From the IMG/VR virus record IMGVR_UViG_2718218304_000002: a stretch of DNA of 40,150 nucleotides. One strand, given 5' to 3'. This document shows, piece by piece, positions 1,754-27,954 of this stretch. Position 1 is the stretch's first letter, and each line of letters opens with the position of its first letter. Position numbers and translations under genes: made by a program. This DNA comes from a virus (Duplodnaviria; Heunggongvirae; Uroviricota; Caudoviricetes). The notes beneath the pieces were generated by a model that worked only from the letters and a program-made list of their open reading frames with translations, was not told where the DNA came from and made no database searches.

Positions 1754-1825
1754 TGAAGTGGTTTACTGAATTTGGCCACCTGAACAGAGGTGATATGCTC
1801 ACCTCAGAACAACACAGGTGCCATA

Positions 1826-3801
<1,976 letters not shown>

Positions 3802-3873
3802 TATGGCACCTGTGTTGTTCTGAGGTGAGCATATCACCTCTGTTCAGGTGGCCAAATTCAGTAAACCACTTCA

Positions 3874-4056
3874 GTGGCTTGTGGCTGGTTTTTTCCTCCA
3901 GGCCTGACGGCTGAATACCTCACTGATCGCTTCTTTGACTGCGCCAGCTACTGGCGCATTAATCCTTTCGAATTGCTGAATATGCCGATCAGTGAAATTC
4001 CCTTACTGGTCAGTCAGGCAAACAGGATAGAGCAGGAGAAACGCACACATGGCTGA
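3874..4056 (+). pseudogene. 3' remnant of a tail gene (possibly a tail assembly chaperone) truncated by IS911
   Basis: 60-codon ORF starts with GTG immediately at the IS911 boundary and ends 8 bp into the tape-measure gene; position suggests the gene upstream of tape measure. Family not recognised. Confidence 0.3.
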
Positions 4057-5884
4057 ATTTGAGCTTAAGGCGTTGATCACCGGTGTCGACAGGCTTTCTC
4101 CCGCGCTGTCGAAAATGCAAAAGAAAATCCGGGGATTTAAACGCCAGGCGGAAGAAGCGTCACAGGGTGGGCTGGCGCTTGGTGGCGGACTGGCAGCGGG
4201 TCTGACGCTTTCCCTGAAATCTTATGCCGATCAGGAAAACGCCGCCACCGGGCTGAAAGTCGCCATGATGGATGCGAACGGCGAGGTTGGAAAGAGCTTT
4301 CAGGACATCAATAAACTGGCTATTGGCCTGGGTAACCAGCTACCCGGTACAACGGCTGATTTCCAGAACATGATGCAGATGCTGGTGCGTCAGGGGATCC
4401 CGGCAGAAAACATTCTGGGTGGTGTGGGTAAAGCGACAGCTTATCTTGCGGTACAACTGAAAAAAACACCGGAAGCGGCTGCTGAGTTTGCTGCAAAGAT
4501 GCAGGATGCTACCGGAACGGCGTCAGAAGACATGATGGGGCTGTTCGACACTATCCAGAAGGCGTTTTATCTGGGTGTTGACGATACCAACATGTTGTCC
4601 TTCTTCACTAAAACCAGCTCTGTTCTGAAGATGGTGAACAAGGACGGTCTTCAGGCTGCACAGAGCCTTGCCCCCATCAGCGTCATGATGGATCAGATGG
4701 GGATGAACGGGGAGTCGGCAGGTAACGCCCTGCGAAAAGTTATCCAGTCCGGATTAAGCGTTAAGAAAATCAGGGACGTCAATAAAATCATGGCCCGCCA
4801 GAAACTCGGGGTACAGCTCGATTTTACTGACGGCAAAGGAAGTTTTGGCGGTCTTGATAACATGTTCAGGCAACTGGCAAAGCTGCGAAAACTGACCGAC
4901 GTTAAGCGAACAGGTGTACTTAAGGCAATATTTGGTGATGATGCCGAAACCCTTCAGGTGGTCAATGCACTAATCGATAAAGGAAAGGATGGCTACGATC
5001 AGATCCAGCAGAAGATGAATAAACAGGCCAGCCTGAATAAACGTGTTCAGGCCCAGCTTGGTACGCTGTCCAACCTGTGGGAGGCAATGACGGGGACCGC
5101 AACTAACGGCCTTGCGGCTATTGGCGGCGCATTTTCTGGTGACGCCAAAAATATCACGCAATGGCTGGGGGAGTTAGGGGAAAAATTCACGAAGTTTGCG
5201 GATGAAAATCCCCGGGTTATTCGCGGCGTCGTCGGGCTTGCTGCCGGTCTTGCGATTCTGAAACTGGGATTGATGGGCGTTGGCGGTGCCATCAGTATTG
5301 TCAGCAGGATCATGTCGATGACGCCGATTGGAATGATTGCGACGGCGATAGCCCTGGCTGCGGGATTAATTATCACTAACTGGGATGTTGTCGGACCTTA
5401 TTTCAAGAAGCTCTGGGAAACCATTGGTCCTTATTTTGAGGCTGGCTGGGAACTTCTGAAGATGGTTTTTGCCTGGTCGCCGCTGGGGATGGTAATCAAT
5501 AACTGGGGACCGGTTGTTAAGTGGTTTCAGGATATGTGGGACAAACTGAAGCCAATTATTGAGTGGTTTACCGACAGTTCCGGTGACACGGTCGATGCCA
5601 TTAACTCTGCGCAGTGGGGCGCGGGTGCTTATGATGCTTATGGGACGGGAATACCGGCACGGGGATACACACCTTATCAGGCGGTAGATCCGGCTCAGTC
5701 AAACAACGCCTCCGGTGCCACAGGCCCGAATCCCTTCATGATTAACAAAGCTTCTGCGCCAAAAGTTGATGGTGAGATCAAGGTCTCTTTTGTGAATTCG
5801 CCTCCGGGTATGCGGGTTATGGAAACGCGATCCAGCGGTTTTGATGTCAGCCATGATGTTGGCTATACGCGCTTTGGCAGGTAA
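4049..5884 (+). CDS. Phage tail tape measure protein
   Basis: 611-aa ORF, Ala/Gly-rich with coiled-coil-like N-terminal half and hydrophobic central segment; followed by Mu N-like and P-like genes. AGGAG 10 nt upstream of ATG. Confidence 0.75.
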   Translation: MAEFELKALITGVDRLSPALSKMQKKIRGFKRQAEEASQGGLALGGGLAAGLTLSLKSYADQENAATGLKVAMMDANGEVGKSFQDINKLAIGLGNQLPGTTADFQNMMQMLVRQGIPAENILGGVGKATAYLAVQLKKTPEAAAEFAAKMQDATGTASEDMMGLFDTIQKAFYLGVDDTNMLSFFTKTSSVLKMVNKDGLQAAQSLAPISVMMDQMGMNGESAGNALRKVIQSGLSVKKIRDVNKIMARQKLGVQLDFTDGKGSFGGLDNMFRQLAKLRKLTDVKRTGVLKAIFGDDAETLQVVNALIDKGKDGYDQIQQKMNKQASLNKRVQAQLGTLSNLWEAMTGTATNGLAAIGGAFSGDAKNITQWLGELGEKFTKFADENPRVIRGVVGLAAGLAILKLGLMGVGGAISIVSRIMSMTPIGMIATAIALAAGLIITNWDVVGPYFKKLWETIGPYFEAGWELLKMVFAWSPLGMVINNWGPVVKWFQDMWDKLKPIIEWFTDSSGDTVDAINSAQWGAGAYDAYGTGIPARGYTPYQAVDPAQSNNASGATGPNPFMINKASAPKVDGEIKVSFVNSPPGMRVMETRSSGFDVSHDVGYTRFGR

Positions 5885-5944
5885 TGAAAAATTAATCTGT
5901 TAATGAGTCCCACTCCGGTGGGATTTTTTATGTACGGAGTTTAT

Positions 5945-7273
5945 ATGACGTGGAAAGACAGACTTCAGGACGCGTCATTTCGCGGTGTGCCGTTTAAGGT
6001 TGAAGAAGAAAGTGCGGGAACCGGTCGTCGTGTGGAAACGCACGAATACCCGAACCGCGACAAACCCTATACCGAAGACCTGGGGAAAATCACTTTCCGC
6101 CCGTCCATCACAGCTTATGTGGTGGGAGATGACTGCTTTGACCAGCGCGATCGCCTGATTGACGCGCTGAATAAACCCGGTCCCGGCACGCTTGTCCATC
6201 CGACTTACGGTGAGCTGAAAGTCTGTGTTGACGGGGAAGTTCGGGTCAGCACATCGAAGAGTGAAGGGCGTATTGTCCGCTTTGACCTGAAGTTTGTCGA
6301 AGCGGGAGAACTCTCTTACCCCACTTCAGGTGCGGCGACGGCGCAGACGCTGATGTCATCCTGTTCTGCACTGGATGACTGCATCAGTGACAGCTTCAGT
6401 GGTTTCAGTATCGATGGCGTGGCAGATTTTGTGCAGAACGACGTCGTCGGTAATGCCAGCACAATGCTTGGGTATGTTTCTGATGCGATGAAAGTGGTGG
6501 ATTCTGCCGTATCGGATGCCGCCAGGCTGTTGCAGGGGGATATCTCGGTACTTCTGCCGCCGCCATCGTCAGGCAAAAATTTCGTTGAGCAGGTGCAGAA
6601 AATGTGGCGTACCGGGAAACGCCTTTATGGTAACGCCAGCGACCTGGTCACCATGATCAAAACGCTTTCCGGTGTCAGCCTCGGCAGCGATCTGCAACCG
6701 CGCGGCGTCTGGAAAACGGACAGTAAAACCACCGCCACGGCGACGCAGCAGCGTAACGTGGTTGCCAGCACCCTTCGTACGACCGCAATCAGCGAAGCGG
6801 CGTATGCCGTCACCCGATTGCCTGCGCCAACAATTTCTGCGGTGATGCAGAATGCCGCAGTGGGGCAGGCAACAACACCCGCGCAGAGCACTGGCTGGCC
6901 TTCCGTCACGCATCCGGCACTGAACAATGCACCGGCGGTGAAAAACACGGTTGACCTGCCGACGTGGGAAGAACTGACTGACATTCGCGACACACTGAAT
7001 ACGGCAATTGATAAGGAGTTGTCCCGTACAACCAGTGATGCGCTGTTTCTGGCGCTGCGCCGGGTGAAAGCAGATCTGAATGCGGATATCAACACGCGCC
7101 TTGAACAGTCTGCACGGATCATTCAGCGCACGCCGGATGAGGTTTTACCCGCGCTGGTGCTGGCGGCGACCTGGTTTGATAACGCGGCGCGTGACGCGGA
7201 CATTATCCGGCGTAATGCCATTACACATCCCGGCTTTGTGCCGGTGATCCCTCTGAAGGTGCCAGTGCAATGA
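5945..7273 (+). CDS. DNA circulation protein (Mu N / gp43-like)
   Basis: ORF 5903..7273; start at MTWKDRL (5945) has GGAG 5 nt upstream. Assigned by recalled similarity to the Mu N family and by position between tape measure and the P/D-like gene. Confidence 0.6.
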   Translation: MTWKDRLQDASFRGVPFKVEEESAGTGRRVETHEYPNRDKPYTEDLGKITFRPSITAYVVGDDCFDQRDRLIDALNKPGPGTLVHPTYGELKVCVDGEVRVSTSKSEGRIVRFDLKFVEAGELSYPTSGAATAQTLMSSCSALDDCISDSFSGFSIDGVADFVQNDVVGNASTMLGYVSDAMKVVDSAVSDAARLLQGDISVLLPPPSSGKNFVEQVQKMWRTGKRLYGNASDLVTMIKTLSGVSLGSDLQPRGVWKTDSKTTATATQQRNVVASTLRTTAISEAAYAVTRLPAPTISAVMQNAAVGQATTPAQSTGWPSVTHPALNNAPAVKNTVDLPTWEELTDIRDTLNTAIDKELSRTTSDALFLALRRVKADLNADINTRLEQSARIIQRTPDEVLPALVLAATWFDNAARDADIIRRNAITHPGFVPVIPLKVPVQ

Positions 7274-7705
7274 ACGACAATGTCACGCTACGGGTAAATG
7301 GCCGGGAGTGGAATGGCTGGACATCGGTGCGCATCGGTGCCGGTATTGAACGGCTGGCGCGGGATTTCAGTGTGGAGATCACCCGCCAGTGGCCGGGTGA
7401 TGAGGGTATCACCACGCTTCAGCCGCGCATTAAAAACGGTTCAAAAGTGGAAGTGCTGATTGGTGATGAGCTGGTGATCACCGGCTGGGTGGAGGCGACG
7501 CCCGTTCGTTACGATGCCCGTTCGGTCAGCACCGGTATTGCCGGACGTAGTCTGACGGCTGACCTGATTGACTGTGCAGCCGAACCGACACAGTTTAACG
7601 GACGCTCGCTGGTGCAGATTGCGCAGGCGCTTGCTGCGCCTTTCGGCATTGAGGTGGTGAACAGCGGTGCGCCGTCGGGTGTTATTCCTGATGTTCAGCC
7701 TGATC
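7270..7705 (+). pseudogene. Mu P (gp44) / P2 D-like tail protein, N-terminal ~145 codons, truncated by IS66
   Basis: Start overlaps N-like stop (ATGA). Native reading ends ...GVIPDVQPD at 7705, where the IS66 terminus GTAAGCG begins; the rest of ORF 7270..7827 is IS sequence. Confidence 0.6.
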
Positions 7706-7742
7706 GTAAGCGTGCAGCAAGAACCGTATTGACGGGGATGTG

Positions 7743-9280
7743 TTATTCAGTCGGCAGTGCTACGCGCCAGGGGAGCAGTTCGCCGACCCGGTTTATCGGC
7801 CAGTCGGCTATGACGTCAAGGACATAGCGGAGGTAGCTTTCTGGCTCCACTCCGTTCAGTTTGCACGTCCCGATCAGGCTGTACAGCAGCGCTCCCCGCT
7901 CTCCTCCATGATCCGAACCGAAGAACAGGTAGTTTTTGCGGCCCAGACTGACCATCCGCAACGCATTTTCAGCGATGTTATTGTCCGCCTCAGCCCAGCC
8001 ATCATCTGCATAGTACGTCAGCGCCGGCCACTGGTTCAGGGCGTATGCGAACGCTTTCGCCAGTTCTGAGTGTCGCGACAGGGTTTTCATCTTTTCACGC
8101 AGCCAGCTTTCCAGGGATTTCAGCAGCGGTTTCGTTTTCAACTGACGTTCGGCAAGGCGCTGCTCCGCCGTCATTCCCCTTATCTCTGCCTCGATGGCGT
8201 ACAGTTCGCCGATCCGTTTCAGCGCTTCCTCCGTCAGGGCTGACGGGGTGCGAACGTGCACATCGTGGATTTTACGGCGGGCGTGAGCCCAACAGGCGGC
8301 TTCCGTTATCCGGCCATCCCGGTACAGCTCGTTGAACCCGGCGTATGCATCCGCCTGCAGTAACCACTGAACCCCGCAAGATGGGTCTGCGGATGGATGC
8401 CTTTTCTGTCCGGGCTGTAAGCGAACCACACCGCCGGCGCCAGCGTTGACCCGGCGTTACGGTCGTCACGAACGTAGGTCCATAACCGCCCGGTCTTCGT
8501 TTTCTTATTGCCTGGCAACAGCACCGGGACAGGCGTGTCATCAGCATGGAGCTTACCGTCAGTCAGCACATAGTCCTGAAGCGCTTCTTCCAGCGGTGAC
8601 AGTAGCCGGCAGCATGCATCCACCCAGCCCGACAGCAGTGAACGACTCAGCTCCACGCCCTGGCGGCCGTACATTTCAGACTGGCGGTACAGCGGGGTGT
8701 GCTCTGCATACTTTGAGATCAGCACGCGGGCCAGCAGCCCCGGTCCTGCGATACCCCGCTCGATGGGCCGTGAAGGCGCGGGGGCCTGCACGATGGCATC
8801 GCACTGAGTACAGGCATGCTTTTCACGTACAGTCCGGATAACCCGGAAGGCGCTGCGCATCAGCTCCAGCTGTTCGGCGGCATCCTCACCCAGATAGCTC
8901 AGCGAGCCTCCACATTCCGGGCAGCATGACGCTGCCGGCAGCAGCCGTTTTTCATCGCGGGGGAGTGATTCGGGGAACGGTTTGCGGGTGCGGGTTTGAC
9001 GCAGCGGGCGCTGCACGGCCGGGTCGTCAACCCGACCGGTAAGGGTATCACTTTCTTTCTGAAGTGCCTTCAGGTCAGCTTCCATCTGTGCGATACGACG
9101 GGAGACTTTTTCCGAGCGGCTGCCGAAGTTCATCCGGCGCAGCTTATCCAGCTGTGCCTGCAGATGGTCTATTTCGCGTTCACGCTCGTTCAGCTTTTCC
9201 TGCAGGGCACGGTTCAGCGCCTCCTGTTCGGCAAGGAGACGTTTCAGTGCATTGATATCGTCAGGAAGTGAGCTGCTCAT
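7743..9280 (-). pseudogene. IS66 transposase TnpC, split by a frameshift
   Basis: N-terminal ORF 8306..9280 and C-terminal ORF 7743..8429 overlap in different frames; frames switch near 8360 (...GFSGY / LQADAYAGF...). One added base would restore a single ~510-aa ORF. Confidence 0.8.
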
Positions 9281-9328
9281 ACCGGGTATATTACCAGGCT
9301 CATTCAGCGTCGACCAGGATAAAGAGGC

Positions 9329-9676
9329 TTACAACATAGTCAGGGACGTAAGCAGTCTTTTAGGCTGCCGCCAGTCGATACCTTCCAGCAGCATCGCCAG
9401 CTGTGCCGGTGTGAGGAACACTTTGCCATCCCGGGCTGACGGCCAGGCGAAGCGGCCGCGCTCCAGCCGTTTGGTCAGCAGACACAGTCCATCGCCGGTA
9501 GACCAGAGGAGCTTTACCTGACTGCCATTACGCCCACGGAAGATAAAAACGTGACCTGACATCGGATCGTCTTTCAGCGTCGTCTGCACCTTTGCCGCCA
9601 GGCCGTTGAAGCCGTTTCTCATATCGGTGATGCCAGCGACCAGCCAGATCTTTGTCCCTGATGGTAATGGGATCAA
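9329..9676 (-). CDS. IS66 accessory protein TnpB (Orf2)
   Basis: 115-aa ORF recognised as IS66 Orf2-like; overlaps tnpA stop (ATGA). Confidence 0.8.
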   Translation of the reverse strand: MIPLPSGTKIWLVAGITDMRNGFNGLAAKVQTTLKDDPMSGHVFIFRGRNGSQVKLLWSTGDGLCLLTKRLERGRFAWPSARDGKVFLTPAQLAMLLEGIDWRQPKRLLTSLTML

Positions 9677-10077
9677 CGTTTGAGCTCCCGTATCAGCAGG
9701 TTCAGGATATTTTCGCTGATGGCACCATTCAGACGGAGTGATCCGTGCCGGAACGTCACTTCACAGCTGATATTGAGTGATTCAGGTGTCGCAGCAGCTA
9801 CAGGTTGTGACCGGGGGGAGGTTGTAGGGACAACATCTTCGGCATCAAGTGTTATCGGGAGCAGCTCAGGCACGTTGTTTTCTGTTGTTGAAGGAGGACG
9901 TAGTTTTCCTTCGCGCCAGTACTGGCGCCACTTGAACAGCAAATTATCGTTGATCCCATGCTCACGAGCGAGTTGCGCTACGGAGATCTCTGGTCGATGC
10001 GAGAGTTCAACCATTTTGATTTTGAACTCAACGGGATAATTAGGGCTTTTTTTACGCACTGCGGTTAATGATTTCAT
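9673..10077 (-). CDS. IS66 accessory protein TnpA (Orf1)
   Basis: 134-aa ORF with N-terminal HTH region, first gene of the IS66 operon. Confidence 0.75.
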   Translation of the reverse strand: MKSLTAVRKKSPNYPVEFKIKMVELSHRPEISVAQLAREHGINDNLLFKWRQYWREGKLRPPSTTENNVPELLPITLDAEDVVPTTSPRSQPVAAATPESLNISCEVTFRHGSLRLNGAISENILNLLIRELKR

Positions 10078-11261
10078 GGATTGCGTCCACCATATTTGGT
10101 GTCCACTATTCTCTCAGGGAATTTCAGGATCTGCCAGACGGTGCTGAGACGACGCTTACCCATTGTATAAAGCGGCGAGTTTTCCTGCATTCGCTCTTCA
10201 TTAGTCTGATCAACAGATTTGGTGGATGTATTTTCAGCACGCAGAAGTTTAGCGCCGGCATGACGCATCTGATTTTCCAGCTTCTCAAGTGATGTTTCGC
10301 CAGATTCTATCGCTGCGCCACTATGTTCAACATATTCGAGGCCATTTTTTGTTCTGTCCTCAAAAATCGTAGCGGTGGATGCACCAACCGTCAGTTCTTC
10401 ATTCCTGTCCAGCCCGTAGGCCACCAGCAATGGAACGCGGGCAACATGAAGAATATTGTCCTGCTCGCTCTGGCTTTGCCAGTGCTTGATATTCAGCAAG
10501 CCAAGATTAAGCAATGGCGGTGTACCACGCATAAATCCTGTTTTCTTCGTGTACAGTGTTACCAGAGGAATATCATCACGGCTGGTATTCCATGACTCAT
10601 GAAGCGTCCAGACAGATTCGCCATTAGTGCCTTCGCTACGTCGATAAATTTCAACTCGACGGGGCATAATATGGCGGATCTGCTCCACCTTCTTCTGCCC
10701 GAAATCATCACCATCAATAATGATGACCTCTTTTATACGCAAATCAGTGAGAACAACTTTCCCTTTTTCAACTTTCGATTTCCATCCAATAACCTGGCGT
10801 GGATTCAGCATCGTAACGTACGGACGACCACCGGTCGCGTTTTCATCGGCTTTTGTCCGAATCTCTTTCATATCCGTTCGTGGATAGTCCACCAGCGCAT
10901 GTGCCACACCATACTGAAATGCGAGGCTGAAAAATTGCTGCGCCCACACATCCAGTCGGCTCCCCTCCATGTCGATATTTTCTGCATATTCCCTGATTTT
11001 TGCCGGCGTTTCCTCACTCAATACTGTCGGCTCTGCAAATATGCGCCCAATATTTTGCTTGATGCTTTCTTCATACACAGGAAGTAGCGTAGCCACAGAC
11101 AGGCGTTTTTTATAAGCGTCTTCATCTTCGTTAGGCCATTTTGGGAGATAATTTTCCCCCTGCCTGCGCATTTCAAGCGTACCGCCCATCAGTGCGTCGT
11201 TAATATCCCACGCCTCCAGCATATCGTTATAGTCGAGGTTGGGTGTTGATATATCAGCCAT
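10074..11261 (-). pseudogene. Putative phage portal protein, C-terminus truncated by IS66
   Basis: ORF lies directly downstream of terminase large subunit; native sequence ends at 10160 and the last ~28 codons are IS66 terminal sequence. Portal call rests on gene order and size, not a recognised motif. Confidence 0.45.
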
Positions 11262-11263
11262 AA

Positions 11264-12574
11264 TTAAATCCGAAGTGATGTGACTCTTCCGGTCGGTTTG
11301 ACAATAGGGAATTGCTTAACGATGAAATAACCTCCGGCATCATTCGGGTGATCATTGCCAGATTTTTTATCAGGCTCCCCCTTCTCATCCCAGACCTGTT
11401 GCTCCAGAGATTCGGCATATAACGGGCAACGCTTCACATTAACTTTATAGCGACGCTCACCATTGGCATTGCAGAACATTGCATTCATTGAGTTAACGCG
11501 ATCTTTTACTGGCGGGTTCGAGCTGTTCACCACAACGTTAAAACCAGCCTGCTTAAGCTGGGCTATATCCGTCGTACTTGCGTTACTTGATTTTCTGGAA
11601 TCCCCGGAAGCATCTGGATAAATATAAATTTCCCTCACTTTCCGGTAATCATTCCCATCATACAGCCAGAAGCGTTCTTTAATGATGCGGATCATATCCG
11701 GCGTATCGTAGGCATTGATGATTTCAGTTACCGCACATGGAAGCCCCAAACGCAGCACATGGACGATTCCCGCCATCTTTCCAACGTTAAAATCCATCCC
11801 AATATAAATCGGCTCCCCTGGCTGCTCCACTTCTTCGCAATTATTCAGTTTCCGGTCAAACTGATGGTAAACAGTACCACTTGTCAGGTTAGTAAACTGT
11901 CCTCGAAGATAGGCTTTAATCAGCTCTGGAGGGTATGATTCAAGAAGCGAAGGAATGTAATCTGCTGGCAGGTTCTTTTCATTATCGAAAGTAGATGCCT
12001 GCACCAGACCATACAGTGAGGCCAGCTCTGTTTTTTCACGCACGGCTTTAACAAACTGCTCGTAGACAAATTTGAATCCTTCCGGCGTGGTTGTAACGTC
12101 AATACCGTTGCGAAGTCCATCAATCTTATAACGCATACGTGCAATTATCTTGCGCCACGCCGTTCTGGCTTTTTCCTTCGGCAAAATGTCCAGTTCATCC
12201 ACCAACGCATTACCAATTTTGAAACCGACGATCGTTTGTGGCTTCTCCATCGATCTGCAGATAGTGGTTCCCCGATACTGGCGTCCGTAATAAAAGTGAA
12301 CCTCTTTATTTCCCTCATTAATTTTTACGTTCAATCCCCAGTCAGCAGCAACTTCTTCCACTGTAGGGTAAAAAATATCGCGAATTTGGGGATACGTTGG
12401 CGCAAAATATCCCTGATTTATACCTGGATGCTCCCAAATCCCCTTGCATATGCCGCCACACCCAACCCATGTTTTGCCCGAGCCAAAACCAGCAATATAG
12501 GCTTTAAATTTATGGAGCATTGAAAGAAATCGCGCCTGAGGCACATTAAGCGTCGGAGAGATCATCTTCATCAC
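11264..12574 (-). CDS. Terminase large subunit
   Basis: 436-aa ORF with Walker A (AGFGSGKTW) near N-terminus and nuclease-like C-terminal half; follows the terminase-small candidate. Confidence 0.85.
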   Translation of the reverse strand: MMKMISPTLNVPQARFLSMLHKFKAYIAGFGSGKTWVGCGGICKGIWEHPGINQGYFAPTYPQIRDIFYPTVEEVAADWGLNVKINEGNKEVHFYYGRQYRGTTICRSMEKPQTIVGFKIGNALVDELDILPKEKARTAWRKIIARMRYKIDGLRNGIDVTTTPEGFKFVYEQFVKAVREKTELASLYGLVQASTFDNEKNLPADYIPSLLESYPPELIKAYLRGQFTNLTSGTVYHQFDRKLNNCEEVEQPGEPIYIGMDFNVGKMAGIVHVLRLGLPCAVTEIINAYDTPDMIRIIKERFWLYDGNDYRKVREIYIYPDASGDSRKSSNASTTDIAQLKQAGFNVVVNSSNPPVKDRVNSMNAMFCNANGERRYKVNVKRCPLYAESLEQQVWDEKGEPDKKSGNDHPNDAGGYFIVKQFPIVKPTGRVTSLRI

Positions 12575-13640
12575 TCCTTACTCTGGCATCAACCACATTA
12601 ATATTGATCGCCACAGGCTGGGGATGTTCATTATCTTCCACCGTTTCGATCTCTTTGCGCAGCTTCTGGTTTTCCATTCTGCGCCGTTCAATTTCCAGTT
12701 CCTGTAGCCGCTTATCTGCACATAAAGCCCCGCCAGCAGAAAACAAACGCAACAATTCACGCCGGGTGGCAGCCTTATCCTCCAGCAGGATCTCAACGCC
12801 GAATTTTCCGAATTTTGCCCCTGCATATAATTGCCGCGCATCCCCATCAAGCAGAGTGGTATCAGCCATATAAAGCTGTCCCGTTCCCTCACCGCAGCAC
12901 TTCGGGCAGTCCGGATTGGGTATGGCGTTATCAACAAAGCCGAGGCCTCCATATTCCGGTTCGGGGTTGCCATCTCTGGAAGCCTGCGCCGCTGCCTTGT
13001 CGAATTCTGCTATATCGCGCCACTGGTAGAGATGATTCTCGCCCCAGCAATAACGGCAGTTAACACGGCGAAATTGTGCAAGCTGATTGGGGTCGGCCAG
13101 GACAATAGCCATCAACTGACTCACTAGTAAATCCAGGTCTGCGGTATAGCGTTTCTGGTACTGATTGCGGAAGTAGCTGATAGCGCGAAAAACCCTGGCA
13201 TTTCTAAGCATACGACTGGCGTTGCTGTTAGCTGTCGCACCTTGCCCCTCATAACCGGCTAGTCGGTACGCCTCTGTCGGCTTTTTACCCTGAGCAACAA
13301 GCATCGCAAACTTAGCCTGCTGGTCAGAAATGCCGAATTCATCGGGACAGAACGAAAATTCCTCCGCGTCGCCCTCATTCAGGCCCGCATCGAATACTGG
13401 CTTTTTTTCCTGAGATTTCTCGTTCCGCTTTTGTGCAGTCTGCGCAGATTTTTTCTGCGCACTTTTTTGCGCAGTTTTGCACATTTCTGTCTGCGCATTT
13501 TTCGGAGTTTTTTTGATGTAACGACGGGCTGTTGCGTAATTCAGTCCCCTTGCTTCACACCATGCCACCGGAGATATACCGGAGCGGGTGTATTCAGCAA
13601 TATACTCCTGCTGCAACGCCCCCCAGTCCGGTCTGCTCAT
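12546..13640 (-). CDS. Putative terminase small subunit
   Basis: 364-aa ORF with N-terminal HTH-like segment, Lys/Gln-rich linker and C-terminal Cys-rich region; 29-nt overlap with the large-subunit start. Confidence 0.5.
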   Translation of the reverse strand: MSRPDWGALQQEYIAEYTRSGISPVAWCEARGLNYATARRYIKKTPKNAQTEMCKTAQKSAQKKSAQTAQKRNEKSQEKKPVFDAGLNEGDAEEFSFCPDEFGISDQQAKFAMLVAQGKKPTEAYRLAGYEGQGATANSNASRMLRNARVFRAISYFRNQYQKRYTADLDLLVSQLMAIVLADPNQLAQFRRVNCRYCWGENHLYQWRDIAEFDKAAAQASRDGNPEPEYGGLGFVDNAIPNPDCPKCCGEGTGQLYMADTTLLDGDARQLYAGAKFGKFGVEILLEDKAATRRELLRLFSAGGALCADKRLQELEIERRRMENQKLRKEIETVEDNEHPQPVAININVVDARVRSDEDDLSDA

Positions 13641-13643
13641 CAG

Positions 13644-13895
13644 TTAGTCCTGATTTTTATCCACCCTGAGTAGTTCGCGCAGAGCAAAGGCATCCCCTTT
13701 TCTGGCAAGCTTAAACAATGCCGCTCGTAACTCGGCTTCACCTTTCGCTCTGCCCTTACGGATGGCCGCATAAAAATCTGTCATTGCTTCCCGATTTGCT
13801 TTCAGTCGGTTCAGATCAACATCCAGAACGTCAGCGATTTGTTGTGCAGTCATCCGGCACGCTGCCAGAGACTCGACTTTCGAATACGGAATCAT
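13644..13895 (-). CDS. Small basic phage protein, function unknown
   Basis: 83-aa ORF just upstream of terminase small subunit; start uncertain (internal Met at 13853). Confidence 0.35.
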   Translation of the reverse strand: MIPYSKVESLAACRMTAQQIADVLDVDLNRLKANREAMTDFYAAIRKGRAKGEAELRAALFKLARKGDAFALRELLRVDKNQD

Positions 13896-14763
13896 TTGTC
13901 ACCCCCATTGATATGCAGGGTGTCTTCTTCCTGTATTTTTCGTGAAGGATTTTTACTGCAGCGTTGTTCCAGGTGACCTGATGGTGAATGCGTTTATGGC
14001 TGGCACCCATCAGTGAGATTTTTACGCACGACGGCGCATACATGACGGAGTAAAAACTTTTAACGTAGGTTCCGGAATCCAGATACAGCTCGGTCATTCC
14101 GCCGCTGTTTTTCTGCGTCTGTTTCTGCCCTAACTGGACAGCACCGATCGTCATAAACAATTCACCACAGCGACCGAGATTCGTGTACGTATTCACATCC
14201 TCGTTAATGCGCCCCATGAATGAGAACGGTCGATCAACCGAACAGATAAAGCTGTTCATTGCCTTGCGTTTCACCCACGAAGCATGGCCGCCATTGTCAC
14301 CAAGAAAATCCCCTCCCTGCGACATAGCGATGGAAAGAGCAGGTATTGATTCGTAGTACGCCAGCATTTCAGAAAGGATCGCATCCAGTTTCCTTATCGG
14401 AAAATAGGCCTGGTCATAGTTGCGATCCACCCGAAACTGGAACTCGTGATAATCATCATCGAGCTGAATGAAGTATTTACACCCGACCAGTTTTGCCTGG
14501 TCGAAACAGGCATTACGGGCGTAAAAAATTGAGCGGCGGTCACAGAAATTATCGGCTTCGTCAAAACGACTGGCGATATCGGCTTTGGAAAACACCAGCA
14601 CCTGTTCACCAAATTCAGCCATGTACTGATGCCGTGTCTTATCTTCATCATCAACAACGATAAAAATTTTCCCGGTATAGCCAGCACGACGCAACGTCCG
14701 GTAAGTCAGAACTTTGTCCGGTCGCCCGTGAGTCAGAATAAAGGCGCAAAAATCATCACGCAT
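13831..14763 (-). CDS. Hypothetical phage protein (YdaY-like position), possible DxD-type nucleotide-sugar transferase
   Basis: ORF 13831..14784; start MRDDFC (14763) overlaps the upstream ParB-like stop (ATGCGTGA). Acidic motifs IVVDDEDK and QLDDDYHEF suggest a GT-A-like enzyme; this is a guess. Confidence 0.5.
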   Translation of the reverse strand: MRDDFCAFILTHGRPDKVLTYRTLRRAGYTGKIFIVVDDEDKTRHQYMAEFGEQVLVFSKADIASRFDEADNFCDRRSIFYARNACFDQAKLVGCKYFIQLDDDYHEFQFRVDRNYDQAYFPIRKLDAILSEMLAYYESIPALSIAMSQGGDFLGDNGGHASWVKRKAMNSFICSVDRPFSFMGRINEDVNTYTNLGRCGELFMTIGAVQLGQKQTQKNSGGMTELYLDSGTYVKSFYSVMYAPSCVKISLMGASHKRIHHQVTWNNAAVKILHEKYRKKTPCISMGVTNDSVFESRVSGSVPDDCTTNR

Positions 14764-15547
14764 ATTCCTCCTCCTCACCACCATGCATGATCTCCACCAT
14801 GCGCTGCGTCATCCGGACAAATCCATTTTCAATAGCCTGCTGATAATCAATGATCACCAGCGCCGACTCCTCGAAAAAACACTGAATTTCAGCGGGGGCG
14901 TGAGCGTAATAGTCCGCAATTCTGCTGAAATTAAACACCGTGTGACGTTCTGCCGCACACAGGAGGAATTTCTCAATATCAGGCTCAAGGGACGCCGAAC
15001 GTATCCGGCTGATCAGCTCCTGAGTTTTCGTATCGTCGTACAGTTCACTGATATCCGGTTTACCGCCCGACGGCTCATAAACAGGCGTATCAATTTTCGT
15101 CGTATACGGCTCCTCCTCATTTCCTGTACCGGGCAAAACATCCGTCAACAGTTCATCAATTTCTGTCGGGATGAAGCCTGTCAGGGAGACATCAAAATCA
15201 GCATTGATTAGGTCCGACAGCTCCATCCGCAACAGATCTTCATCCCAGCCAGCATTCATCGGCAGGCGATTATCTGCCAGGCGGTACGCCTTTTTCTGCT
15301 CATCCGTCAGGCCAGACAGAACAATGACCGGAACAGAATCCATTTTGAGCATTTCAGCCGCCATAACACGACCGTGACCCGCAATAATTTCGCCCTTTTC
15401 GTCAATCAGCACCGGATTAGTCCAGCCGAATTGCTTAATACTTTCTACCAGTTGTGCCACCTGCTCAGTACTGTGCGTCCTGGCGTTGTGCGCATACGGT
15501 GACAATTCTTGTAATGGGCGATAGACTATCTTTAATTTCTCGCTCAT
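14756..15547 (-). CDS. ParB-like nuclease domain protein
   Basis: 263 aa; N-terminal ParB/Srx-like region (...NPVLIDEKGEIIAGHGRVMAA...), acidic C-terminus; matches the Rac ynaK position after trkG. Confidence 0.65.
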   Translation of the reverse strand: MSEKLKIVYRPLQELSPYAHNARTHSTEQVAQLVESIKQFGWTNPVLIDEKGEIIAGHGRVMAAEMLKMDSVPVIVLSGLTDEQKKAYRLADNRLPMNAGWDEDLLRMELSDLINADFDVSLTGFIPTEIDELLTDVLPGTGNEEEPYTTKIDTPVYEPSGGKPDISELYDDTKTQELISRIRSASLEPDIEKFLLCAAERHTVFNFSRIADYYAHAPAEIQCFFEESALVIIDYQQAIENGFVRMTQRMVEIMHGGEEEEYA

Positions 15548-15684
15548 ACAGCCTTGCTTTATGAATAAAACGCACCCCAGCAGCCAGTGCTACTGGGGAC
15601 GGAGGTGTTGCTGGTAAAGTTAGGTATTGGATCAATGAGTGAGTCAACATAATATTAAACTCACAATTATAAATCAGCCATATA

Positions 15685-17142
15685 TTAGGAGCGCCAAAAA
15701 AAACCTGAAAACAATATAATAACAGGATAAATTTCAAGGCGACCAAGAATCATAGCTATGCACATTAAACATTTTGCAATGTCATTAAGCACTCCGAATG
15801 ACGATGCAGTAGCCCCAAAACCTAATCCCATATTATTAATACATGCAGCCACTGTTGCAAATGATGTAAGAAAATCATATCCCATACCATTTAACACCAG
15901 TATAAAAAACACCGTGAAGAGAGTATAAAGAAAAAAGAAACTCCATACAGACCTCATTACACGATCTGTAACTATCTTCCCTCCTACATTTACACTCAAC
16001 AACGCTCTGGGATGAGAAAGCTGATTTATCTCGTGTTTGCTTTGTTTGAAAAGTATAAGAAATCGAAGTGACTTAATTCCACCACAAGTTGAACCTATAC
16101 ATCCCCCAAAGAAACTTGACAACAGCAAAAACACTATCGTGTGCGTGGGCCAACTTGCATAATCCTGCGTAGCTAAACCATTATCAGTGAGCATGGAGCT
16201 GGCAAGAAAAAACGAATGAATAAAACTTCCATGCAAGTCATACATACCTATATGCCAGACCTGGAAAGAGGTAACAATGATCACCCCTAAGGCTATTAAC
16301 AGAAAGAAACGAAGTTCAATATCTCTGATTAAAGGTTTTATCGTTTTCCTGCTAATAACAATATACCAAAGAGTGAAGTTGAAAGCCGATAGCAGGGAAA
16401 AAGAACCAGCCACCAGCTCAACCAAATAGTTATTAAAATATCCGATACTCTCGCTATGAGTTGAGAAACCACCAAGCGAAACTGTGGAAATCCCGTGACA
16501 AATAGCATCAAACAAAGGCATTCCTGCAAGTCTATAACAGACAATACAAGCAATACCTAATAAAGAATAAGTTATCCACAGTGTCCGTGACGTATCGGCC
16601 AGGCGGGGAGTGAGTTTGTCATCCTTAAATGGCCCCGGCATTTCTGACTGATAAAGCTTTGCACCACCAATACCCAATAATGGCAATACAGCAACCGCCA
16701 GAACAATAACTCCTAAACCACCTATAAAATTTAACTGTGACCGATAGTACAAATATGCCCGAGGTAATGAACTAACATCATCAATTACAGTTGCTCCTGT
16801 TGTTGTTATTCCAGAAACCCCTTCAAACAGAGCATCAATGAACGTTAAATTAAGTTCTGAGTCAATCCATAAAGGGAATGCACTAATAACAGAAAACAAA
16901 ATCCAAAACATTACAATTATAATAAACCCATCACGGGTACGTAATTGAATGCCAGATTTCTTAGTTGTATACCACGCTCCGCCACCAATGCAAAAAAATA
17001 TAACGAAAGTTATAAAGAAAACAAACAGGCTTTTTTCTTTATAAAACAATGCTACAACCATTGGTGGCAACATTGAAAGACTATAGAGCCAAACCAGGAA
17101 CCCACACATATGAGTAACAACTCTTACATGAGATGTATTCAT
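15685..17142 (-). CDS. trkG: Trk-system potassium uptake protein (TrkH/TrkG family)
   Basis: Polytopic membrane protein with repeated GxG-containing pore-loop motifs; 485 aa from MNTSHVRVV; AT-rich coding sequence; same position as trkG in Rac. Confidence 0.85.
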   Translation of the reverse strand: MNTSHVRVVTHMCGFLVWLYSLSMLPPMVVALFYKEKSLFVFFITFVIFFCIGGGAWYTTKKSGIQLRTRDGFIIIVMFWILFSVISAFPLWIDSELNLTFIDALFEGVSGITTTGATVIDDVSSLPRAYLYYRSQLNFIGGLGVIVLAVAVLPLLGIGGAKLYQSEMPGPFKDDKLTPRLADTSRTLWITYSLLGIACIVCYRLAGMPLFDAICHGISTVSLGGFSTHSESIGYFNNYLVELVAGSFSLLSAFNFTLWYIVISRKTIKPLIRDIELRFFLLIALGVIIVTSFQVWHIGMYDLHGSFIHSFFLASSMLTDNGLATQDYASWPTHTIVFLLLSSFFGGCIGSTCGGIKSLRFLILFKQSKHEINQLSHPRALLSVNVGGKIVTDRVMRSVWSFFFLYTLFTVFFILVLNGMGYDFLTSFATVAACINNMGLGFGATASSFGVLNDIAKCLMCIAMILGRLEIYPVIILFSGFFWRS

Positions 17143-17279
17143 ATCTAAATATTCTTTCAATTATAACCACCTTGCTGCAATATTATGATTATACTGTATA
17201 AAATTTAACTCCTCTTAGATCTTACTTCACTGTTCCTTATGAAACAATCATCAAAATGAATCATATTGTAGTTAAGATT

Positions 17280-24694: not shown

Positions 24695-25744
24695 TTATTT
24701 TAATCTCTGTAATTTTTTACGCAGAGCATTAACTCGTCTCTGAACCCCTATTTTTGGATTAAAGCTCAAAGCTTTTTCATAGGCATCAAGAGCATCACTA
24801 AAGTTACCAAGTAAATCATTTGCTTCACCTTTGATGCGAAATGCGGCTGCAGCCCAGTCAGTTCGGTCTTTCGCTCCTTCATTAAGAGCCATTTCAATTG
24901 CTTTCAATGCTTTTTGAGCATTCTTCTCACTGGGATGTTCTCTTAAAAGCGCTCTCGCGGCCTCTACTTTAAGGTTGAAATTTCCTTTATATAGACAAGC
25001 ATCTTTATACGCTTCCACGTCAATGGGAATACCGATGGCAGTGTATCTGAAGTATCCAATATTTTTGCATTTCACTTTCAGCGATCTTAGCCCCCCATTT
25101 TCATCGAGATCGAAGAAATAACTATCAGCCCATCCATACTCAGGTTTAATGGAAAATATTGTTGTTTTTGACCACAGATTTATTACCTCAAGGATATTTC
25201 CATCTTTACCGGGCGCTGCGGCTGTCTGAACCGATGCGTATTTACCACAATGAGAAATTCCGATATTATAGATATTTGCTTCATAATGACGTCTAAACTT
25301 TTCATTTCCTTCAACATCAATAGCAATCAAATCAGCTTGCAGCGCAGAACCAAATCCAGCGTCATGAACAATATAATCACCTGTGTCAGCGACAGCAGCA
25401 TTAAATGGTCGGGCAATAGTTCTGAGCTTATGAAGGATACGAAAAGTTGGTTTATTAACTAAAACAACTGTTCCAAATCCACTTTCCCGGTGCCCTCCCC
25501 TTCCATTGCCATCAAAGTCACTACAGCCTACAACCCAATGTTTGTTTGCAGACAGATACGCCTGTCCAAAAAAATAAGGAGAATCAATAGTAAGCCAATC
25601 GTTTTCGATTGATATATTTCCGTTTTGTTTCTTGAGTTTAGGAGTTATGTTAGCTGTTAACTCATGCAAACTTGAAGGCGTCATTGTTTTTGCAGAAGTT
25701 ATCCTGGAGGTAAGCAAATTGAATAGTTGTGAAATAAATCCCAT
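24695..25744 (-). CDS. Hypothetical protein with C-terminal TPR-like repeats (349 aa)
   Basis: AT-rich ORF; AGGAG 9 nt upstream of ATG; C-terminal ~100 aa form TPR-like helical repeats; N-terminal ~250 aa unrecognised. Confidence 0.5.
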   Translation of the reverse strand: MGFISQLFNLLTSRITSAKTMTPSSLHELTANITPKLKKQNGNISIENDWLTIDSPYFFGQAYLSANKHWVVGCSDFDGNGRGGHRESGFGTVVLVNKPTFRILHKLRTIARPFNAAVADTGDYIVHDAGFGSALQADLIAIDVEGNEKFRRHYEANIYNIGISHCGKYASVQTAAAPGKDGNILEVINLWSKTTIFSIKPEYGWADSYFFDLDENGGLRSLKVKCKNIGYFRYTAIGIPIDVEAYKDACLYKGNFNLKVEAARALLREHPSEKNAQKALKAIEMALNEGAKDRTDWAAAAFRIKGEANDLLGNFSDALDAYEKALSFNPKIGVQRRVNALRKKLQRLK

Positions 25745-26271: not shown

Positions 26272-27954
26272 TTAACCAATTTTCCATACATTTACTGCTT
26301 GTTCCGACATCCATTTTTGAAAATCATTGACAGCCTCTAAATTCCATTCAGGATACTGTGTAATCTTAGCCGCTAATTTATACTTTGATTTTCCATATTC
26401 ATTTTTCTTCACTTCAAATGAAGCTCTTTTTAGATTATCTTTATCCATCAAAACCATATTTCCTAACCTATCCTTTACGTCATTAACCCCCTCCCCAAAC
26501 GAATTGCACCACCCCTTCTCTGGGTTAAATGGACAAATATGTTCGAGTGTAACTTTTTCATGATCGCAATTATTACCAAGATATTGTTCAATTTCAGCCA
26601 AGAGAAATCTAATTTTTTTGGCTGTTTGTCTACTTGGCATTCGATGAAATTCAAAAGCATTAAAGAACACGTTATCATCAGGATATAACCTCTTAAACTC
26701 CTCCCCATTTTTCACATTGCTAGCTCTCTTGTATTCCTTATTGGAGATCTTAATCGCAATTTGATTATACATGCTTTCTTGTTCACTTGGTGATAAATGA
26801 CAAATAACATTGTATCTAATTGATAAAATATATAAATAACGAGTCAGGCTGACGAACTCATCTGGATTGAATTGATTAAAAGCTGATAGCAATACTGTTA
26901 ATGGCTGTCTAATATTAAAGAGTCTAATGCCGTTCAGATAATGAATGGCCTTCTTGTATTTAGTATCTTGCTCTGCCCACCATGAATCATTCGGGTTAAT
27001 CAATGATGCATAAATAGGTGCGGAATTTATCAGTGATCTTAAATAATCGTATGCTTCTTTAGGGGTTGTAATTACTTTTCTCATTGAAGTGTATAAATTA
27101 TTTTTTGTGACCATTTTTCTATGAGAATTATGATGATACCTAATGTAATCAGAAACATTGCTTTCTCCCAACTGATCGATAATCTCCGACCATTGCTCAT
27201 CTAACTCATCTAATTCCTCATCTCCGATTTTCTCATCCTTAGTTACTATCGAAAACAAATAGTTTTTTAAGAGATCTGGCGTGGATAACTGGACTCCTCT
27301 CGCATTTAAAGTTTCAAATACTTTGTATGCATTTAAATCATCTTGAACAACTATTTTTGTAAAAACCATACTCGAAGAAAAATCGGCAATAAACTGTGCG
27401 ATCTCAGCGCCGGTATTACCGAACTCCTTCTTTTGGAAAAAATCAAAGCATTTCTTGAGTAGCTTATTTGTAGATGTAGTTCCACGAGTATTAGGAGCTT
27501 CTAAGTTTGAACAGATGCTTTGAAAATATCTTTTATTATTTCTATTTAAATCTAGCTTGCTAACCACCTTTAATGAAACGAAGTTTTTGTTACCCACAAA
27601 TGTCTTTGTTATTGCATCAAGTCGCTCTGTGTTTTGTTCAACCTCCTCTCCTTTATCTATCAAGTTTTTAATGGCTTTCATGGCTGCTAGAACTATAATC
27701 GACAAGGTTACTAATCGTTGTTGACCGTCAATGACCTCATGTTGATACTGTTCTTTTTGTTGAAGAACTATATATCCCATATAATGAAAACCTTCATCAT
27801 CAAGTGCTGTAACATCACTCCAAAGGTCCTCCCATTGTTCTACATCCCAAGCATAGTCTCGCTGGAATCTAGGAACAATGTACTTATTTGACCCTCCAAT
27901 TAATTCATTGAAGTTCTCATTTTTTGGTTCCATTAACATAAACTGTTTGGCCAT
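26272..27954 (-). CDS. GmrSD-family type IV restriction endonuclease-like protein (DUF262 + DUF1524/His-Me finger)
   Basis: 560 aa; N-terminal DUF262 motifs (YIVPRFQRDYAWD, VIDGQQRL) and C-terminal His-Me motif (TLEHICPFNPEKGW...N...N); very AT-rich coding sequence. Confidence 0.75.
   Translation of the reverse strand: MAKQFMLMEPKNENFNELIGGSNKYIVPRFQRDYAWDVEQWEDLWSDVTALDDEGFHYMGYIVLQQKEQYQHEVIDGQQRLVTLSIIVLAAMKAIKNLIDKGEEVEQNTERLDAITKTFVGNKNFVSLKVVSKLDLNRNNKRYFQSICSNLEAPNTRGTTSTNKLLKKCFDFFQKKEFGNTGAEIAQFIADFSSSMVFTKIVVQDDLNAYKVFETLNARGVQLSTPDLLKNYLFSIVTKDEKIGDEELDELDEQWSEIIDQLGESNVSDYIRYHHNSHRKMVTKNNLYTSMRKVITTPKEAYDYLRSLINSAPIYASLINPNDSWWAEQDTKYKKAIHYLNGIRLFNIRQPLTVLLSAFNQFNPDEFVSLTRYLYILSIRYNVICHLSPSEQESMYNQIAIKISNKEYKRASNVKNGEEFKRLYPDDNVFFNAFEFHRMPSRQTAKKIRFLLAEIEQYLGNNCDHEKVTLEHICPFNPEKGWCNSFGEGVNDVKDRLGNMVLMDKDNLKRASFEVKKNEYGKSKYKLAAKITQYPEWNLEAVNDFQKWMSEQAVNVWKIG

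Follow-up and report, generated by a model that had tools for sequence, protein, structure and literature searches.

A conserved YnaK-TAGT gene pair upstream of the terminase genes of a Rac-type Escherichia coli prophage: a candidate ParB-assisted glycosyltransferase

What does a ParB-like gene do when it is joined to the gene of a possible sugar-transferring enzyme just ahead of phage packaging genes? This question is raised by the virus record IMGVR_UViG_2718218304_000002 (Caudoviricetes), a DNA stretch of 40,150 nt, here termed the window, which belongs to a defective, mosaic Rac-type prophage of E. coli. On its minus strand, ynaK (14756..15547, 263 amino acids) overlaps a gene for a 310-amino acid protein (13831..14763). 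The original prediction, made from the sequence alone, regarded the two as a possible DNA-modification module with an unusual partner, and this idea gains support from the glycosyltransferase family of the second protein and the ParB fold of the first. The pair is read here as a ParB-assisted two-component glycosyltransferase that would modify phage DNA before packaging, a reading in which we place about as much confidence as doubt.

At the protein level, the 310-amino acid product had been listed as unknown, a description that does not hold. It has a curated Pfam match to PF20691, the TET-associated glycosyltransferase (TAGT) family (E=1.2e-34, 120.4 bits, gathering score 27.5), and it matches PHROG 842, beta-glucosyl-HMC-alpha-glucosyltransferase, over residues 1-298 (E=5.6e-104). 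NCBI labels it 'GREB1-related protein' or 'hypothetical protein', depending on the genome. The AlphaFold model is confident for residues 1-150 only; this region is a GT-A Rossmann-like domain, and the best viral matches are annotated TAGT-domain proteins. The predicted fold is that of an enzyme. A PDB sequence search gave no relative of the TAGT protein, and a PADLOC search no defence-system match. Judged by its sequence, the protein is a TAGT-family GT-A glycosyltransferase.

The two acidic motifs that had first suggested a DxD nucleotide-sugar transferase, IVVDDEDK (residues 35-42) and QLDDDYHEF (residues 100-108), are both present, and the resemblance is borne out by the TAGT membership, the GT-A nucleotide-diphospho-sugar transferase fold and an invariant DDD. 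In an alignment of 17 TAGT homologues with 60-82% identity, D38, D41 and D102-D104 are invariant, as are Q149-G-G-D152, N187-E-D189 and a C-terminal R258/H260/H261 cluster. The codons for D102-D103-D104 (gatgatgat), the DxD-type metal/nucleotide-sugar motif, lie at 14452..14460 on the minus strand. TAGT homologues are mostly basic, with an isoelectric point (pI) of about 9 in distant members.

A characterized relative is the Ggt enzyme of phages T2 and T6, which adds a second glucose to alpha-glucosyl-5-hydroxymethylcytosine (PMC13216743; PMC13390438). T6 Ggt belongs to PF20691 (35.8 bits) and PHROG 842 (E=5e-78), as does the Rac protein, and both are phage-encoded GT-A enzymes. A profile of the family alignment gave no significant alignment with T6 Ggt, the two being too diverged; the relationship therefore rests on shared Pfam and PHROG membership. 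The T-even enzyme differs in depending on gp42 and the alpha-glucosyltransferase of the same genome, neither of which is found in the Rac-type genome, and T-even phages have no obligate ParB-like partner, as they carry no homologue of the YnaK C-terminal domain.

The manner in which the two genes are joined is itself conserved. The ynaK stop codon (TGA at 14758-14756) lies within an 8-nt overlap, ATGCGTGA (14756..14763, minus strand), that contains the ATG of the TAGT gene at 14763; this gene ends with its stop at 13831. The minus-strand junction reads GAGGAGGAGGAATATGCGTGA, with a Shine-Dalgarno-like GAGGAGG ahead of the overlap (SD-like sequence GAGGAGGAGG, 14767-14776, minus strand). A longer frame of 317 amino acids is open from an ATG at 14784, but homologues begin at the MRDD position instead. 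Homologous gene pairs overlap by 8 nt at 46 loci and by 11 nt at another 24, giving 70 of 79 loci from many phyla and one archaeal virus. Such conservation argues that the coupling is not due to chance, and both the overlap and the translational coupling proposed at the outset are upheld. At its other end, the E. coli TAGT gene encodes a C-terminus about 22 amino acids longer than that of nearly all homologues (310 vs about 288 amino acids; window 13831-13900, minus strand). This tail is not conserved, runs 23 nt into the start of the small gene that follows and may have arisen as an extension by read-through.

The family alignment was used to fetch 80 viral and 42 genomic loci. Of the genomic loci, 40 have a full-length YnaK homologue immediately ahead of TAGT; they come from Enterobacterales, Bacteroidota, Clostridia, Veillonella, Acidobacteriota, Chlorobia, Saccharibacteria and others. 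The two exceptions are L093, which lies on a very short contig, and L119, in which the locus opens with the TAGT match. Open reading frame (ORF) clustering of 28 longer loci recovered the YnaK family in all 28 and TAGT in 27, and the remaining TAGT (L103) was found by phmmer. No third family is conserved beside the pair in more than 11 of these 28 loci, and only YnaK and TAGT are universal. The phage database holds 28 records with the YnaK C-terminal domain, and every one of them has an adjacent TAGT gene. Records with the pair include the archaeal Haloarcula virus HHTV-2, Lactobacillus phages phi jlb1, c5 and phiLdb, and Nocardia phage NTR1. Co-occurrence, which had been set as a check on the pairing, is therefore strict. 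The pair is also common, being carried by 1619 of 5426 complete E. coli genomes (about 30%).

YnaK itself consists of two domains separated by a variable linker. It scores just above the cut-off for Pfam ParB_N (PF02195; 29.3 bits, cut-off 26.3), matches PHROG 620 with E=1e-90 and is identical in sequence to a protein cluster of 1812 member sequences. Residues 1-135 (15143..15547, minus strand) form a ParB-CTPase-fold nucleotide-binding domain, as indicated by alignments, the structure model and a PDB sequence match to Spo0J (1vz0, E=1.8e-5). The model has predicted local distance difference test values mostly of 75-93 over residues 1-130, falling to 65 around residues 91-100, and its top Foldseek matches are Noc, ParB-CDP/CTPgS, PadC and KorB. 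Box residues kept across phyla are N21/R23, the P-motif G57-x-x-R60 (here G57-H-G-R60) and D92-N93, of which N21, G57, R60 and N93 are invariant or nearly so; in ParB, the counterparts of N21/R23, the P-motif and N93 contact the nucleotide. The Glu of the GERR hydrolysis motif is replaced by His (G-H-G-R). On these residues, binding of a nucleoside triphosphate by YnaK is plausible, and its hydrolysis is uncertain.

The closest matches of the N-terminal domain are the ParB modules found in phage DNA methyltransferase fusions (phrog_498, E=9e-51; PADLOC MTase_II, E=1.7e-38). The PADLOC match is limited to the ParB module of the methyltransferase model and does not place YnaK in a defence system. 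YnaK differs from these fusions in having no methyltransferase domain, such that catalysis would be provided in trans by a glycosyltransferase. Phage ParB-methyltransferase fusions often adjoin terminase genes. In a set of 27 diverse loci, the commonest PHROG families downstream of TAGT are those of terminase subunits, both small and large and from several different families, and phrog_498 matches two genes just downstream of TAGT.

YnaK shares the N-terminal CTPase fold and the box II/III residues with Spo0J, Noc and KorB, and some phage records name it 'chromosome partitioning protein' or 'ParB-like nuclease'. This raises the question of whether YnaK acts in partition or is a nuclease associated with packaging, its neighbour being functionally unrelated; its terminase-adjacent site is one where HNH or other nuclease packaging helpers occur. 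Such a role is very improbable. YnaK falls below the cut-off of the canonical ParB model TIGR00180 (38 bits, cut-off 58.45), has no helix-turn-helix and no ParA-binding N-terminal motif, and lacks the ParA or parS context of Spo0J, Noc and KorB; no parA is annotated in the prophage of the window or in an annotated relative. Unlike those proteins it is strongly acidic, in both of its domains (pI about 4.5, net charge about -25). The strict adjacency to TAGT across phyla, the conserved overlap, and the existence of a partner without a ParB domain (described below) also speak against an unrelated neighbour.

The second domain, residues 148-250 (14798..15106, minus strand), is helical and specific to the family. 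Its signature, YTxKIxxPxYEP ... AAxRHxVFNY.KIAEYYAHA ... SALVIID..AIENG, has an invariant first segment, and identity across phyla is 37-68%. Pfam gave a sub-threshold match only, and a profile of the domain found only spurious helical-repeat matches in PDB; neither search revealed a helix-turn-helix or other recognizable DNA-binding domain. The domain family has 1188 representatives at 50% clustering in the protein library. Among the best 150 of these the domain is near the C-terminal end in most, the majority of the proteins have 240-310 amino acids, one protein of 382 amino acids bears a 120-amino acid tail, and none is a Rosetta-stone fusion with TAGT. In E. coli, many entries (P0193-P0235) hold only the first ~165 YnaK residues, and in some entries these continue into a Lom/Ail, tail-fibre-assembly or other tail-related domain. 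The Rac element of K-12 presumably has only a short ynaK and no TAGT gene, and the short forms are consistent with Rac deletions, as in K-12, that remove the YnaK C-terminal domain, TAGT and the head genes.

The Vibrio phages of ~190 kb indicate which part of YnaK goes with TAGT. Here the TAGT partner is a protein of 139 amino acids that consists of the C-terminal domain only, and TAGT has a 38-amino acid N-terminal extension (pairs at L129, 8459-9888, of Vibrio phage pv27, and at L133, 24857-26251). These pairs are found among replication genes, including those for a processivity factor, SSB, a primase and helicases. Since the C-terminal domain alone partners TAGT in these phages, it appears to be a cofactor specific to TAGT; the ParB domain is often added to it but can be dispensed with.

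A precedent for an enzyme that depends on such a partner has been described. Among phage thymine dioxygenases, one subclass acts on double-stranded DNA only when the cognate ParB homologue is co-expressed (PMC13229309). In the 5mYOX176/ParB176 system, the ParB homologue has a nucleotide-binding and a C-terminal domain, has no DNA-binding domain and is encoded beside its enzyme (PMC13229309), and YnaK has the same organization beside TAGT. The likeness is one of architecture and adjacency. The systems differ in that the 5mYOX enzyme is a 5-methylpyrimidine dioxygenase, in contrast to the glycosyltransferase found here, and in that 5mYOX-ParB sits with kinases and amino-acid transferases of thymidine hypermodification, which are absent beside YnaK-TAGT. 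A survey of the ParB-CTPase fold reports frequent phage methyltransferase fusions and the binding of various nucleoside triphosphates, with glycosyltransferases unmentioned (PMC12704722).

For the pair, the protein families, the fold, the conserved motifs, the strict linkage, the kept overlap and the place in the genome are established, and DNA as the substrate, a role of YnaK as activator, the sugar donor and the timing are inferred. In the mechanism proposed here, the two genes would encode a glycosyltransferase of temperate tailed viruses with two components, which are obligate partners and translationally coupled. TAGT would be the basic catalytic subunit that binds nucleic acid and a UDP-sugar, the latter probably held by the DDD motif and a divalent metal. 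The C-terminal domain of the acidic YnaK would serve as an obligatory structural or activating subunit specific to TAGT, and its ParB-CTPase-fold domain most likely adds nucleotide-gated control, targeting or access to duplex DNA, in the way of the ParB partners of phage thymine dioxygenases. With expression from the late operon immediately ahead of the terminase genes, replicated phage DNA would be glycosylated just before packaging, and the genome thereby marked or protected. DNA is favoured as the target because the characterized phage and kinetoplastid TAGT relatives act on DNA, because ParB-fold proteins have a DNA-centred biology, and because of the ParB-dependent 5mYOX precedent (PMC13229309). 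The complementary charge of basic TAGT and acidic YnaK and the recurrent site upstream of unrelated terminase families are further points in its favour.

Several observations weigh against this proposal. The usual acceptor of DNA O-glycosyltransferases is missing. Characterized DNA glycosyltransferases need 5-hydroxymethylcytosine (5hmC), 5-hydroxymethyluracil (5hmU) or a sugar on either, yet no TET/5mYOX, dCMP/dUMP hydroxymethylase or alpha/beta-glucosyltransferase was found in the Rac-type prophage or its annotated relatives, in the complete 38-kb genome of phi jlb1, where every sufficiently large gene is otherwise annotated, or in two metagenomic contigs with precomputed Pfam calls. In addition, YnaK is strongly acidic with no recognizable DNA-binding domain, its ParB domain is dispensable in the Vibrio lineage, and the C-terminal halves of both structure models are of low confidence, the N-terminal halves alone being confident. 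GREB1, a TAGT-domain protein, glycosylates a protein (PMC7968844), and no experimental data were found on the DNA of any phage that carries the pair.

The absence of TET near the pair is based on the 25 Pfam families listed for recurrent neighbours (per-family counts only), which do not include Tet_JBP, on the ORF clustering and on complete genomes. As no TET/JBP dioxygenase, hydroxymethylase or other hydroxymethyl-pyrimidine pathway enzyme, and no primary DNA glucosyltransferase, is found with the pair, the acceptor would not be phage-made 5hmC, 5hmU or glucosyl-5hmC. Candidates are a canonical base, a base methylated by the host, a DNA end and also a protein. Direct attachment of the sugar to one of these bases or DNA ends, without a hydroxymethyl precursor and by means of a ParB-fold or C-domain cofactor that reaches the target in duplex DNA, would be a DNA modification not described before; it is a tentative proposal that falls well short of an even chance.

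Perhaps the pair has instead the classical TAGT role, adding a sugar to 5hmC, 5hmU or a glycosylated base supplied by an unrecognized phage or host activity or by foreign DNA. This would match what characterized relatives do (PMC13216743; PMC13390438), and the ~190-kb Vibrio phages with the pair carry a ThyA-like gene beside DHFR, which may encode either a thymidylate synthase or a hydroxymethylase and can be counted in its favour. It is nevertheless quite unlikely, given that neither complete phi jlb1 nor Rac has an annotated candidate for the supply, that any third family occurs with the pair in at most 11 of the 28 longer loci, that Tet_JBP is missing from the listed neighbour families, and that T-even phages, where the classical role is found, have no YnaK C-domain homologue. 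The kinetoplastid J-base glucosyltransferase, which with the GREB1 glycosyltransferase domain is in the same family as TAGT, requires 5hmU made by JBP and has no ParB-type partner (PMC7968844).

The missing acceptor, together with GREB1, makes protein glycosylation a serious rival. TAGT might glycosylate YnaK itself, terminase, a virion protein or a host factor, with the ParB-fold domain as a nucleotide switch or adaptor. The GREB1 TAGT-domain protein O-GlcNAcylates a protein (PMC7968844), and the Tyr/Thr-rich YTxKIxxPxYEP segment of YnaK is a possible glycogenin-style acceptor, with Y148, P155 and Y157 invariant within an otherwise flexible segment. Glycogenin is among the structural neighbours of TAGT, but this similarity is generic to the GT-A fold. 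The pair also has no source of hydroxylated DNA bases. One pair-bearing metagenomic phage contig (L125, 17837-20316) has four consecutive GT2-family genes after the capsid gene, in the head module, which suggests virion or other glycosylation in the same virus. A protein target is on balance unlikely. Characterized prokaryotic and phage ParB-fold members act mainly on DNA or on DNA-modifying enzymes, the YnaK N-terminal domain is closest to the ParB modules of DNA methyltransferases, and the Vibrio phage pair is placed among replication genes. GREB1 differs from the pair in being fused to an inactive helicase and in having no ParB-type partner (PMC7968844).

The location of the pair in the prophage bears on the proposed timing of DNA glycosylation. 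As originally described, the pair is upstream of the terminase genes, which are its conserved downstream context: the small subunit is encoded at 12546-13640 and the large subunit at 11264-12574, both on the minus strand. A protein of 69 amino acids (13644..13853, minus strand) that matches part of the terminase-small PHROG 309 has a 23-nt overlap with the 3' end of TAGT. Upstream, the potassium transporter gene trkG, a moron (15685-17160, minus strand), is inserted between the lysis cassette and ynaK. Between trkG and ynaK is a strong terminator-like hairpin (15575..15598, minus strand) with a 10-bp stem, seven GC pairs and a T-rich tail, which by its sequence would act as a terminator. The pair would accordingly be read with the antiterminated late operon, by read-through, and not from the trkG promoter; ynaK and TAGT look like the first genes of the packaging part of that operon.

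This arrangement also bears on whether the pair serves lysogenic conversion, as a glycosyltransferase that changes a glycan of the cell envelope in the manner of the prophage Gtr or TarP enzymes. That possibility is scarcely credible. The pair is in the late operon behind a terminator-like hairpin, no Gtr-type flippase or membrane partner is annotated beside it, and its partner is a ParB-fold protein; occurrence in the replication module of the ~190-kb Vibrio phages and in an archaeal virus does not fit either.

As domain families, both proteins are catalogued, and the gene is therefore not new as a sequence family; ParB-assisted DNA modification is likewise an established principle. Iyer et al. 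in 2013 reportedly defined TAGT and discussed ParB in modification loci. A literature search found no report that combines TAGT, ParB and phage glycosyltransferase, though an earlier mention in that work is possible, and a survey of haloarchaeal viruses does not mention the pair. We could not find a description of the obligate dyad of the YnaK C-terminal domain and TAGT, of its breadth or of its independence from hydroxymethyl-pyrimidine pathways. A 2026 study, in which ParB is unmentioned, reports that 288 of 753 TAGT-encoding phage genomes carry 'solitary' TAGTs (PMC13216743). The pair may explain some of these, and as a two-gene system it is cloneable.

Nearly all known DNA glycosylation in phages comes from large lytic phages, which begin by making 5hmC or 5hmU. 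The TAGT enzyme described here is tied to a ParB-like cofactor and occurs in small temperate phages without a precursor pathway, over a range of many bacterial phyla and a haloarchaeal virus. A ParB-assisted DNA glycosyltransferase would extend ParB-fold activation of DNA-modifying enzymes from dioxygenases to glycosyltransferases. Were the acceptor a canonical base, this would be new DNA chemistry, with a bearing on evasion of restriction and Type IV systems, on sequencing artefacts and on biotechnology. If sugar is added to DNA without a precursor, ordinary temperate phages, bacterial and archaeal alike, would commonly have sugar-modified DNA, and the prophages carried by about 30% of complete E. 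coli genomes would be among them. With a protein as the target, the pair would represent a new type of protein glycosylation in phages.

The prophage around the pair has annotated Rac context genes, namely racR, ydaS/T/U/V, recE, kilR, sieB, the essD-rrrD lysis genes, trkG and the terminase genes. Strains D9 and D4 are 100% identical to the window over 2.2 kb around the pair. The left part of the window (4049-11261) differs from strain D9, whereas the pair region matches D9 perfectly. This left part has Mu-like tail genes on the plus strand (tape measure, DNA circularization protein N and GpP baseplate). An IS66-family insertion sequence (about 7743-10077) abuts these and truncates the Rac portal gene (DUF4055, 10074-11261). 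The Mu-like tail genes and truncated portal gene indicate that the prophage is mosaic and defective, with the YnaK-TAGT pair still intact. Further left, at 1754-3873, is a perfect 1060-nt inverted repeat with no spacer, whose arms (1754-2813 and 2814-3873) are 100% complementary and represent two copies, placed head to head, of an IS3-family (rve integrase) fragment. In E. coli, a palindrome of such length should be unstable, and an assembly artefact or a very recent rearrangement is therefore likely.

The early region of the same prophage encodes, at 26272-27954 on the minus strand, a protein of 560 amino acids with GmrSD_N and GmrSD_C domains, a member of a Type IV modification-dependent restriction endonuclease family, which matches the PADLOC candidate system HEC-06 with E=3.8e-221. 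Its gene adjoins that of a TPR protein of 349 amino acids (24695-25744, minus strand). The prophage thus holds both a putative DNA-sugar-adding enzyme and a nuclease of a family known to cut sugar-modified DNA. The copy of the prophage in strain MB56 is without the GmrSD insert.

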